DNA of 42,243 nt from an uncultured Bacteroidales bacterium (GTDB lineage Bacteria; Bacteroidota; Bacteroidia; Bacteroidales; UBA3824), in assembly GCA_905233995.1 (NCBI GenBank), contig CAJOGF010000009.1:1-42243 (forward strand), read 5' to 3'. How positions within the stretch are numbered: the stretch's first letter is position 1; every line of letters begins with the position of its first letter. Position numbers and translations under genes: made by a program. Below the pieces are notes generated by a model. The model saw nothing but the letters and a program-made list of their open reading frames with translations. It made no database searches and was not told the origin of the DNA. Shown here piece by piece: positions 23,831 to 25,208 of the stretch.

Positions 23831-25017
23831 AACAAATCTTCAATGTTTGCCCTAAAAAATACATCGAATGGAATACCGTCCGTGCCTACGATAAAAGCAT
23901 TTTTTGGGTGGAACTTGTCGCCAAAAACTTTAAGACCACTGTTCATACCGCGACGTCCGCTCTTAACCTCGATGGCAATGCTCTCGTCTTGTTTTTGAAT
24001 GATGAAATCCACCTCGTCGTTGCGCTCACGCCAATAATAAACATTGTAGCCGCCCTCCACAGCACCACCCAAAAGGTACGCTCCGACTGCCGACTCCACC
24101 CAACGTCCCCAAACCTTCGGGTCGATTCTGTCGTTATTGAATCCTTTGCCCTTGTATGCGGTAAGGAGCGCGTTGTTATACACTTGATATTTAGGAACCG
24201 ACTGATATTTACGCGCCTCATCGTTGGCATATTTTTGCAAACCGGCGAGCATATTGCATTGGTCGAGGATTTCAAGGTAACTCGACAATGTTGTAACATT
24301 GCCAGCATCCAATAGTTGCCCAAGCATCTTATTGAGCGACAACAATTCAGCCGAATACGCACAGCCTAACTCAAAAAGTTGTTTCATCAGAGCCGGCTTG
24401 TAAATATTGGAAGTCATAATGACGTCCTTTTCGATTGCGGGTGCAACAAGAGAATCCTTTACGTATCTGCACCAGCGTTTTTCATCGTGAATGTAACGCG
24501 CCGTCCCCGGATAGCCGCCGAAATAAATCCATTGGTCTAATGTCCAACCGAAGGCCTCTTGCATTTCAGCAAAAGTCCAATGTCCAAGCCGTATCATCTC
24601 AAAACGTCCCGCCAGCGATTCTGTCAATCCCTTTCGTAGCATAAGCCTCGACGAACCCAAAAGCAAAACTTTCAACGGCAAGCCCGCTGAAGTGTCAGAA
24701 TCCCATTCACGCTTGACGGCTTCGCTCCAATTGCGTATTTTCTGAATTTCGTCAATTACAAGTATCGCTTCTTTTGCGTTTTGAATCTTCATTAGCGACC
24801 TTGCACTTGCCCAAGTACGACGAATCCAATCGGTGTCGGTTTCATCAACATTGTCGGCACGGTAAAAGAAATGTGGAAAAGAAATCTCTTTCAGTATTTG
24901 TTCCACAATAGTTGTTTTCCCAACTTGCCTTGGTCCCGACAATACTTGAATTACCCCACGAGGCTCATTCACTCGGTCTAATATCTCTTTAAATTGCTGT
25001 CTTTTAAATGCTTCCAT
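23827..25017 (-). CDS. AAA+ ATPase of the AAA_14/DUF4143 type
   Basis: Walker A GPRQVGKTT, Walker B LVIDEIQ, ~396 aa, and a C-terminal region typical of this family as I remember it. The start is taken at ATG 25017-25015 rather than the TTG at 25023. GC is clearly above the window background (29/60 at 23941-24000). Confidence 0.85.
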   Translation of the reverse strand: MEAFKRQQFKEILDRVNEPRGVIQVLSGPRQVGKTTIVEQILKEISFPHFFYRADNVDETDTDWIRRTWASARSLMKIQNAKEAILVIDEIQKIRNWSEAVKREWDSDTSAGLPLKVLLLGSSRLMLRKGLTESLAGRFEMIRLGHWTFAEMQEAFGWTLDQWIYFGGYPGTARYIHDEKRWCRYVKDSLVAPAIEKDVIMTSNIYKPALMKQLFELGCAYSAELLSLNKMLGQLLDAGNVTTLSSYLEILDQCNMLAGLQKYANDEARKYQSVPKYQVYNNALLTAYKGKGFNNDRIDPKVWGRWVESAVGAYLLGGAVEGGYNVYYWRERNDEVDFIIQKQDESIAIEVKSGRRGMNSGLKVFGDKFHPKNAFIVGTDGIPFDVFFRANIEDLF

Positions 25018-25020
25018 TCT

Positions 25021-25208
25021 CAAATCTTCGTTACAAAATTCTCAAATCTTGCTTACAAAATTCTCAAATCTTGCTTACAAAATTCTCAAATCTTCGCTAC
25101 AAAATTCTCAAATCTTCGCTACAAAATTCTCAAATCTTCGCTACAAAATTCTCAAATCTTGGTTACAAAATTCTCAAATCTCTGTTGCAAAATTATCAAA
25201 TTATCATT
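25021..25208. repeat. Tandem array of eight 22-bp direct repeats plus a partial ninth (consensus caaatcttNNNtacaaaattct)
   Basis: Unit starts are 25021, 25043, 25065, 25087, 25109, 25131, 25153 and 25175 (degenerate), with a partial unit at 25197-25208. Units 1-7 differ only in the 3-nt core (cgt, gct, gct, cgc, cgc, cgc, ggt). Confidence 0.95.

Follow-up and report, generated by a model that had tools for sequence, protein, structure and literature searches.

What does a run of 22-bp direct repeats do at the very start of an ATPase gene in an uncultured Bacteroidales bacterium? The repeats lie in a 42,243-nucleotide stretch of DNA (the window), and no longer example is known of the conserved element that accompanies this family of ATPase–nuclease genes in several bacterial phyla. 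Most likely, the array is a docking and control site for the ATPase rather than an origin of replication.

The array and the gene it adjoins

The array occupies positions 25016 to 25208 and reads on the minus strand, the strand of the gene. Its seven near-identical units are flanked on the distal side by a degenerate unit and on the proximal side by a partial one, which includes the ATPase ATG. Tandem Repeats Finder gives a period of 22, 8.5 copies, 93% matches, and a score of 288 at 25016–25201; the other arrays that it reports in the window are far weaker. On the gene strand, the seven near-identical units read (A/G)AGATTTGAGAATTTTGTA(A/G)(C/G), with a conserved 11-bp core, TTGAGAATTTT, and a spacer that varies. 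The first-pass annotation had described eight head-to-tail 22-bp units, and its boundaries and unit sequences are exact; units 1–7 are mostly invariant, as it also stated, and their differences are confined to three positions, which fall in the spacer. The 19-nt unit junction TACAAAATTCTCAAATCTT occurs seven times, always within the array (0.23 occurrences expected), and no further copy of the core at up to one mismatch was found elsewhere in the 42-kb window. The array thus has the tandem direct repeats of 17–22 bp, at a spacing of ~22 bp, that are found in iteron-type origins.

Other properties first ascribed to the repeats did not hold. TTTG had been said to recur every 11 nt on the minus strand, where its recurrence actually alternates between 9 and 13 nt, and the A-tracts, described as 11 nt apart, have centers that in fact alternate at 14 and 8 nt. 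Strong intrinsic curvature is unsupported by a crude estimate, a simple phasor sum of the A-tract centers, which at 10.5 bp per turn reaches a low 0.13 of its maximum, versus 0.67 at 11.0. A coding repeat is ruled out by a period that is not a multiple of three and by the varying number of units; on these same grounds, and because an alternative gene call yields 85 aa, a 168-aa ORF running through the array (25049–25555) is an artifact. No known RNA family matches at the array in Rfam, at either gathering or relaxed thresholds.

The adjoining gene extends over 23827–25017 on the minus strand (396 aa plus stop) and encodes an AAA_14 + DUF4143 protein. Its ATG was correctly placed at 25017–25015, next to the array, and an alignment of homologs favors this codon over a TTG at 25023. 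The GC content of the gene is 0.46, versus ~0.34 in its flanks. AAA_14 and DUF4143 are its only Pfam domains, and DUF4143 has been placed in the PD-(D/E)xK superfamily (PMC3424549). End to end, the protein matches the PADLOC candidate PDC-S01 (PDLC04791, E = 1.2e-179, residues 4–395), which is defined by the protein only, unlike the combination of gene and repeats described here. PDC-S01 (AAA_14 + DUF4143) is reported to be the fourth most common defense candidate in prokaryotes and the most frequent single defense locus in rumen microbiomes; the literature terms it an unvalidated phage-defense candidate. Three minus-strand motifs stand out in the sequence: Walker A (GPRQVGKT, aa 28–35, 24913–24936) and Walker B (VIDE, aa 87–90, 24748–24759), both invariant across phyla, and a PD-(D/E)xK nuclease core (aa 325–352, 23962–24045) with invariant D337, E350, and K352.

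Which known proteins does the ATPase resemble? An AF2 model (pLDDT 89) comprises AAA+, lid, winged helix, and nuclease. Model and alignment together predict a winged helix-turn-helix at aa 208–279 (24181–24396, minus strand), with helices at 208–220, 228–234, and 241–253 and wing strands at 257–260 and 276–279; its sequence, LSLNKMLGQL..GNVTTLSSYLEIL, is nearly invariant in the alignment. The best Foldseek matches of the model in the PDB are ORC subunits and archaeal Orc1/Cdc6 on origin DNA (E about 1e-7, TM-score 0.30–0.36, ~390 aligned columns), although generic AAA+ proteins score alike. The protein had been called initiator-like, and the modeled AAA+ and winged helix do resemble ORC/Cdc6, but the likeness is one of structure only, at a low TM-score: PDB sequence and profile searches gave no family member and no sequence-level relationship to ORC/Cdc6. 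A viral fold library yielded nothing beyond generic AAA+ proteins for the modeled ATPase.

Promoter register and conservation across loci

How is the array placed with respect to the promoter of its gene? Work on Bacteroides and Flavobacterium promoters defined a consensus of TTTG at −33 and TAnnTTTG at −7, and the units had been likened to these elements. The likeness is exact in one unit only: the canonical gAATTTTG is one base off the −7 consensus, but in the distal degenerate unit a G-to-T change in the core (TTGAtAATTTTG) creates an exact −7 box, TAATTTTG, at 25188–25195 on the minus strand. A TTTG at 25215–25218 on the same strand, 19 nt upstream of this box, is a candidate −33 element, which gives the ATPase gene the pair of elements characteristic of Bacteroidota sigma-A promoters on its own strand. 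The box at 25195–25188 is the predicted ATPase promoter, and its position within the distal unit implies that ~7.5 units would form a 5' leader downstream of the presumed transcription start site (TSS). A second TAnnTTTG, TATTTTTG at 25226–25233 on the ATPase strand, is a possible alternative promoter; on the plus strand, a −7 box TATTTTTG at 25252–25259 lies outside the cassette, 39 nt before a small divergent ORF.

Is this arrangement peculiar to the window? In a motif-agnostic test of 86 ATPase loci, 97% of the upstream regions contained five or more 10-mers that recur at a distance of exactly 22 bp, versus 4% of 417 other ORF starts; the positive 4% are the same arrays viewed from the opposite strand. 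Across periods of 15 to 30, the ATPase loci gave a signal at 22 only. The core, TTGA[AG]NAN, has a density of 15.4 per kb upstream of the ATPase and 1.0 per kb elsewhere, and it is regular in both spacing (exactly 22 bp in 207/243 core intervals) and orientation (329 forward versus 38 reverse). Core positions, even those unused in unit finding, carry 1.7–2.0 bits, and spacer positions carry 0–0.6 bits. The first-pass annotation proposed to check whether arrays always accompany DUF4143 ATPase genes. Of 12 arrays recovered through DNA search, 4 (L001, L013, L021, and L024) lack an intact adjacent ATPase; arrays can thus outlast the gene.

Of 82 arrays, 72 keep a fixed register to the −7 box. In layout A, the first core starts 7–11 nt past the −7 box, or inside the box as in the window, and the array sits between the predicted TSS and the ATG, which falls within the last unit. 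In layout B (30 loci), the array is upstream of the promoter, with 3 nt between the end of its last core and the −7 box. Overall, half of the loci have their array downstream of the promoter. In either layout, roughly half of the loci have a TTTG at the canonical −33 spacing, which thus does not discriminate between the layouts. In the window, as in both layouts, the array is outside the ORF and outside the −33/−7 spacer, and changes in unit number shift neither the reading frame nor the −33/−7 spacing, as they would in phase variation.

Unit number is variable at short evolutionary range. It runs from 2 to 9 across loci (8–9 in the window), takes values of 2, 3, 5, and 8 within the window's own lineage, and varies from 2 to 4 at 98.7–99.9% ORF identity; L164 and L165, which encode identical proteins, have three units and two units, respectively. 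As a description, the earlier "hypervariable VNTR" is therefore apt, since strains whose genes are 98.7–100% identical differ in unit number. When loci from different genomic contexts are compared, their homology begins at the array and extends to 0–23 nt past the stop codon, leaving the ATPase as the only constant partner; judged by these limits, array and ORF move as a ~1.4-kb cassette. In 3 of the 86 loci (L033, L062, and L090), a second array of the same motif directly follows the stop codon, and no conserved partner gene was found after these downstream arrays, the genes there (M1 peptidase, BspA LRR, tRNA_SAD) being unrelated. The cassette of the window is flanked on one side by a small ORF for an anti-sigma-like membrane protein (85 aa, 25298–25555, plus strand) and on the other by a decayed ECF sigma-factor gene (23513–23790, plus strand). 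The sigma gene is intact in close relatives, which shows that the cassette is lodged between partner genes, one for sigma and one for anti-sigma.

Does the element extend beyond the Bacteroidota? Homologs of 42–55% identity in other phyla have related half-sites immediately before the ATG, either as palindromes or at a distance of 22 bp. Two copies of TTTGTTCAA lie 22 bp from each other in Coxiella pQpDG, which also has one inverted copy; Thermus oshimai has TTTTTACTAG-N6-CTAGTAAAAA; and Collinsella has TACTCAGTATACTGAGTA twice at 22 bp. Half-sites are also carried by B. finegoldii, B. ndongoniae, P. gulae, and a phage-like contig. Some of the homologs are plasmid-borne (e.g., Coxiella and Collinsella) or lie beside genes of conjugative elements. 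The half-sites in Coxiella, Thermus, and Collinsella indicate that the element follows the gene and not the host's promoter type; scans for sigma-70 promoters gave no hit upstream of the homologs in Coxiella and Collinsella. Among relatives of just 22–27% identity, inverted repeats with arms of at least 9 nt occur at 75% of the genes' own promoters versus 25% of other gene starts.

Candidate readers of the array

What, then, reads the array? One of the explanations first put forward, an operator array bound by the ATPase, is the best fit to the comparative data, which tie the element to the gene family across phyla and hold it in register with the core promoter. We consider it moderately probable that the cassette's own ATPase binds the repeats as a phased operator/loading array, with autoregulation as the outcome. 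In the window, phased sites are contiguous with the gene's core promoter, and the gene product has a putative DNA-binding domain in its predicted winged helix-turn-helix (aa 208–279).

The repeats would be helically phased protein-binding sites belonging to the ATPase cassette, since one 11-bp core per 22 bp would set all cores on one face of the helix with the same polarity. Their likeliest binder would be the gene's own ORC/Cdc6-like AAA+ ATPase, with its winged helix and C-terminal PD-(D/E)xK nuclease, which may assemble head to tail, each unit taking up one protomer. Since the array is contiguous with the −7 element, such an assembly would control transcription of the protein's own gene, most probably through autorepression. 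The number of units, readily changed by slippage, would tune cooperativity or threshold, and foreign DNA may titrate the protein and so derepress the gene. A Thermus AAA_14/DUF4143 gene was induced 6.6-fold with plasmid DNA present (PMC4406477). Given the two opposite layouts of the promoter, the array could serve repression in one clade but activation in the other.

Could the host rather than the ATPase be the reader, by way of a host transcription factor, sigma contacts, or UP-like phased bent DNA? We regard this as unlikely, although several observations speak for it. With gAATTTTG, the units come close to the −7 box; in some clades, every unit holds an exact TAGATTTG; and the array is contiguous with the box. 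Moreover, co-variation of winged helix and motif was not seen: the core takes the forms GAAT, ACAT, and GTAA, yet the winged-helix region hardly changes; the mutual information of alignment columns with motif class shows no cluster in that region; and motif class and overall protein identity do not track each other. However, the same 22-bp or palindromic half-sites occur in Coxiella, Thermus, and Collinsella, which have other promoter types; the core has no further copy in the window at up to one mismatch; the array is downstream of the promoter at half of the loci; and the A-tracts are poorly phased at 10.5 bp per turn.

It is rather improbable that the array is a cis site for recombination or mobility, at which the ATPase–nuclease would act to move array and ORF or to copy them. 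Such a role would suit the limits of cassette homology at array and stop codon, the second arrays right after the stop in L033, L062, and L090, the conserved nuclease triad, an ORF GC content foreign to its flanks, and the copies on plasmids and next to conjugative-element genes. It is at odds with the scarcity of loci with arrays on both sides (3/86) and with orphan arrays that resemble ORF deletions; neither target-site duplications nor circular junctions were seen, and the fixed register to the −7 box is left unexplained. An extended version, held to be no more probable, is a selfish ~1.4-kb cassette whose ORC-like ATPase–nuclease would polymerize on the array as the cis site for moving or copying between genomes. 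If this were true, the array would be both operator and "end," and the fourth most common defense candidate would be a new kind of minimal mobile element.

The layout of the window also allows the repeats to act as RNA, in an A/U-rich repetitive 5' leader that would control translation or stability, which we hold to be quite improbable. The array of layout A does lie between predicted TSS and ATG, with the ATG in its last unit, and the leader folds better than shuffled sequences (z = −5.9, a type of score that tandem repeats inflate). In the 30 loci of layout B, however, transcription would not include the array, which is upstream of the promoter; furthermore, the hairpin requires an AAGATT variant in place of which many units have ACTTTT, and Rfam contains no match. 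A neutral, slippage-prone satellite (VNTR) without function is very improbable. Unit number differs among near-identical strains, and the almost identical units of the window point to recent expansion, but conservation is confined to the core, the spacer being free, and the 22-bp period, polarity, and promoter register are kept across phyla and across clades that differ in motif.

An iteron- or ORB-type replication origin, or the remnant of one as first suggested, with an ORC-like initiator is hardly tenable: the 22-bp spacing is typical of iterons, the modeled fold resembles Orc1/Cdc6, and some homologs are plasmid-borne, but the ATPase carries a nuclease domain, and the element is locked to the gene's own promoter and precedes hundreds of single-gene cassettes. 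The array is surrounded by chromosomal housekeeping genes, with no DnaA box near it (the window's only TTATNCACA is at 40441); as the first-pass annotation noted, there is no Rep, integrase, or mobilization gene nearby (19.7–30.8 kb), and the single polarity of the units means that there is no inverted ORB pair.

Known repeat systems and significance

Which known systems pair repeats with the gene of their binder? The iteron plasmids (R6K, pSC101, F, P1, and RK2) are like the window in having 22-bp-spaced direct repeats beside the presumed binder's gene, and like other members of the ATPase family in having inverted half-sites at the promoter; plasmid Rep proteins occupy iterons as monomers and operator palindromes as dimers. 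Unlike these plasmids, the window has no Rep (WH-WH) protein, DnaA boxes, or autonomous replicon, and the partner of its array, which is locked to a −7 box, is an AAA+ ATPase fused to a nuclease. Archaeal Orc1/Cdc6 proteins with their ORBs (PDB 2qby and 2v1u), among the best Foldseek matches at TM-scores of only 0.32–0.36, resemble the modeled AAA+ and winged helix and have binding sites (presumed, in the window) beside the protein's own gene. However, ORBs are inverted around an unwinding element, whereas the window units are all co-oriented, and the window protein has an extra PD-(D/E)xK domain.

Phased direct repeats flanking or abutting the core promoter of the binder's operon are also a feature of ParR–parC (plasmid R1) and the omega heptads (pSM19035), where binding is cooperative and the repeats double as autoregulatory sites. 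Their binders are, in contrast, small RHH proteins and their repeats are 7–11 bp, and the window has neither a partition ATPase nor a filament partner. SARP/AfsR-type activators use repeats 11 or 22 bp apart, of which the 3' one keeps a short, constant distance to the −10 element (PMC10936776). This geometry, in a system with a STAND ATPase and a DNA-binding domain, recalls layout B, which ends 3 nt before the −7 box, but SARP/AfsR proteins have an OmpR-type DNA-binding domain and no nuclease, and they regulate other genes rather than their own.

No mention of the upstream repeat element was found in the papers searched that name DUF4143, COG1373, or PDC-S01. For annotation and assembly, the arrays carry a warning: ORFs called through them are artifacts, and assembly breaks tend to fall at them. 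Copies occur in cultured Bacteroides ndongoniae and Porphyromonas gulae and on Coxiella burnetii plasmids. As a cis-element that accompanies its gene, the array is the first concrete handle on what the PDC-S01 protein recognizes; it leads one to expect an 11-bp site that is read at 22-bp intervals, and it suggests both a mode of expression control and a reason for the natural differences in array length.

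An array of 22-bp repeats at the start of an ATPase gene

Tandem Repeats Finder recovers positions 25016-25201 as one strong array of period 22 (8.5 copies, 93% matches, score 288), and the 19-nt unit junction occurs seven times in the 42-kb window (0.23 expected), always inside the array. The unit sequences and coordinates of the first-pass annotation proved exact. The ATG of the ATPase gene (25017-25015) falls within the last, partial unit. Its helical arguments fared worse. On the gene strand TTTG recurs at 9/13 nt rather than every 11 nt, and the A-tract centres, described as 11 nt apart, alternate at 14/8 nt; because their phasor sum is just 0.13 of the maximum at 10.5 bp per turn, this crude estimate does not predict the strong planar curvature that had been proposed. 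Elsewhere in the window, a 42-bp tandem repeat (16562-16669, 2.2 copies) lies in frame within a 640-aa ORF (15548-17470).

The ATPase ORF (23827-25017, minus strand; 46% GC against 34% in its flanks) encodes 396 aa with AAA_14 (E = 9e-24) and DUF4143 (E = 2e-22) domains and matches the PADLOC model PDLC04791 (PDC-S01) end to end (E = 1.2e-179). PDC systems are 145 untested candidates from “guilt-by-embedding” (bioRxiv 10.1101/2024.01.29.577857). PDC-S01, a PD-(D/E)xK domain fused to an ATPase, is described as ranking fourth in frequency among prokaryotic defences, validation pending (PMC12988326), and in 6,530 rumen genomes no other single locus is as frequent (PMC13356809); the PD-(D/E)xK superfamily list includes DUF4143, with function unknown (PMC3424549). 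Sequence and profile searches of the PDB returned no matching entry. In an AF2 model from a 42-sequence alignment (pLDDT 89, pTM 0.88), an AAA+ core with its lid is joined by a winged helix-turn-helix (aa 208-279), and an alpha/beta nuclease core forms the C-terminal part. Human ORC subunits and archaeal Orc1/Cdc6 on origin DNA (2qby, 2v1u) are its best structural matches in the PDB, aligned across 350-400 columns, at TM-scores of just 0.30-0.36 and with generic AAA+ proteins about equal. The Walker A and B motifs and D337/E350/K352 are invariant from Bacteroidales through Coxiella, Thermus and Collinsella.

This cassette of array plus ATPase ORF lies between an ECF sigma-factor gene (23513-23790, plus strand) and its anti-sigma-like partner (25298-25555, plus). 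The sigma gene is intact at 189-211 aa in the close relatives L024, L162 and L164. In the window it has decayed, its remnant being about 68% identical and devoid of any long ORF, which leaves the partner, an 85-aa membrane ORF, orphaned. Between this small ORF and a lipoprotein gene, two copies of the direct repeat CAGATATAGCGGATTATAA enclose the hairpin AGCGGATTATA-acgc-TATAATCCGCT, after which comes a run of A; the region (25537-25604) resembles a bidirectional terminator. A tRNA gene (29158-29244, minus), some 4 kb away from the cassette, stands at the edge of a stretch with elevated GC (23.8-29 kb), and the very start of the window (1-46, plus) matches the Rfam Acido-Lenti-1 RNA (47.5 bits; gathering score 37).

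Association of the array with the ATPase family

How closely is the array tied to this gene? Searched for exact matches to the unit junction, 185,579 species genomes yielded 30 stretches. Of these, 18 are lone chance matches in unrelated taxa; the other 12 come from Bacteroidales MAGs of rumen or gut origin and hold 2-8 units in tandem. Eight of these 12 arrays directly precede a homologue of the ATPase (58-88% identity), and four lack an intact one. Conversely, nearly all of 80 metagenomic loci fetched by protein (homologues of 52-73% identity) carry 2-9 tandem units upstream of the ATG. Across 86 loci, the density of TTGA[AG]NAN is 15.4 per kb within 250 nt upstream vs 1.0 per kb elsewhere, predominantly in one orientation (329 forward, 38 reverse), and the distance from one occurrence to the next is exactly 22 bp in 207 of 243 cases. 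A motif-agnostic score, counting 10-mers repeated at a set offset, was positive at offset 22 for 97% of ATPase upstreams vs 4% of 417 other ORF starts, the few positives among the latter being either the same arrays read on the other strand or a second array; over periods 15-30, the signal appeared at 22 alone.

Related sites lie directly upstream of the ATG in plasmid and phage-like records across phyla, where the homologues are 42-55% identical: TTTGTTCAA twice, 22 bp apart, with an inverted ATTGAACAAA in Coxiella burnetii pQpDG; TTTTTACTAG-N6-CTAGTAAAAA in Thermus oshimai; TACTCAGTATACTGAGTA twice at 22 bp in Collinsella aerofaciens; three copies of ATTGAGTAAAATTA in Bacteroides finegoldii; and ACTGCGTAAAA twice at 22 bp in a faecal phage-like contig. 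Some relatives at 22-27% identity also have repeats (Novosphingobium, TGACGATTGG twice at 22 bp), and inverted-repeat arms of at least 9 nt occur within 90 nt of the start in 75% of this group vs 25% of other genes. The element is also present in cultured Bacteroides ndongoniae and Porphyromonas gulae; the P. gulae cassette is flanked by RteC and TraG/T4SS coupling-protein genes (L126/L127, 1019-1348 and 3484-4212) and is therefore within a conjugative element.

Unit anatomy, promoter register and copy number

Each unit combines a conserved 11-bp core, with eleven positions per class at 1.7-2.0 bits (some of them not used in unit finding), with roughly 10 spacer positions at 0-0.6 bits. The core class is TTGAGAATTTT in the window's clade and TTGAACATTTT, TTGAGTAAA(T/A), TTGAGTAATTC or TTGAAGATTTT in others; the most distant subfamily members (52-54% identity) carry the half-site as palindromes, TTTACTCAA-N4-TTGAGTAAA, at the same 22-bp period. 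Other intergenic 21-22-bp tandem arrays in related Bacteroidales loci, not adjacent to this ATPase, have internally palindromic units (e.g., GAAACACTTTGTTTC, AAAACGCAAGTGCGTTT) and may serve other genes as operators (L047 2093-2188, L095 2398-2502, L089 2356-2592, L035 1787-1872, L057 5599-5661, L072 2827-2909, L070 812-916 and L039 1680-1797).

Two layouts relative to the promoter were found, each with a fixed register. In layout A (42 loci, the window's among them), the Bacteroidota -7 box TAnnTTTG precedes the first core by 7-11 nt or falls within the first unit, and the array extends to the ATG, often embedded in the last unit. In layout B (30 loci), the last core stops 3 nt short of a -7 box at -29. 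The layouts track protein clades (mean identity 0.66-0.69 within, 0.56 between). In the window, the degenerate distal unit, TTGAtAATTTTG, creates a predicted -7 box, TAATTTTG (25195-25188), with a TTTG 19 nt upstream; because this box sits in the distal unit, we infer that transcripts would carry the array as a leader some 165 nt long.

Arrays hold 2-9 units, most commonly 3, the window's being the longest among 82. The hypervariability suspected in the first-pass annotation is real: whole units differ between strains whose ORFs and flanks are 98.7-99.9% identical (3/2/4 units in one group, 2-4 in another), L164 and L165 encode identical proteins behind 3 and 2 units, and the window's own lineage has 2, 3, 5 and 8. 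Two assemblies of the window's exact locus agree on 8.5 copies. Metagenome counts may be underestimates because short-read assemblies break at these repeats; contig L162, with a 99%-identical ATPase, terminates inside its array (1-42).

Homology between unrelated contexts runs from the array, or its -7 box, to 0-23 nt past the stop codon; array and ORF therefore behave as a cassette. At three loci the stop codon is directly followed by another array with the same core motif (L033 5214-5318, L062 2925-2976, L090 about 5300-5400), beyond which lie unrelated genes (M1 peptidase, tRNA_SAD, BspA-type LRR protein). As to the four arrays without an intact ATPase, L021 (4609-4700) shows a clear internal ORF deletion, L013 (307-395) and L024 (315-375) share flanks with ORF-bearing loci, and in L001 (6916-6960) array and -7 box now stand 118 nt before an unrelated epimerase-like ORF.

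Possible functions of the array

What might the array do? We lean somewhat towards a phased operator or loading array that serves the ATPase-nuclease of the same cassette. With one 11-bp site every two helical turns, all in the same orientation and directly adjoining the -7 element, an ATPase-nuclease oligomer would assemble on the array and control the promoter of its own gene. The gene product would be the most economical candidate binder, because promoter types differ across these hosts and the ATPase is the element's sole constant neighbour. Autorepression would be the favoured mode, because layout A sites cover the -7 box or start site and a nuclease-bearing protein is likely kept at a low level. 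Layout B may support activation: the repeats of SARP proteins, spaced 11 or 22 bp, are set at a constant interval from the -10 (PMC10936776), much as the last core of layout B ends 3 nt from the -7 box. A Thermus AAA_14/DUF4143 gene rose 6.6-fold in the presence of plasmid DNA (PMC4406477), which fits inducible, titratable control. An ATPase-bound operator, already among the readings first put forward, gains from the family tie and fixed register; its weak points are that no clear co-variation of winged helix and motif was seen, that motif class does not track protein identity and that orphan arrays exist.

A host-factor or curvature element is unlikely, given a related element across phyla and an array downstream of the promoter in half the loci. 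A recombination site of the cassette, marginally less probable, would if true be the most novel outcome. An RNA leader, possible for layout A only, has predicted hairpins (z = -5.9) that depend on a spacer variant without conservation, making it quite improbable. A purely neutral VNTR is very doubtful, contradicted by the core/spacer contrast and conserved register, and the iteron origin, one of the options left open earlier, is unsupported and least credible, with neither Rep gene nor DnaA box near the array, units of single polarity and a chromosomal context.

In the literature surveyed, papers naming DUF4143, COG1373 or PDC-S01 describe neither an upstream repeat element nor any function. 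The array resembles iterons, ORBs and operator arrays such as parC; what is new relative to these is the partner protein and the consistent organisation of the cassette across phyla.
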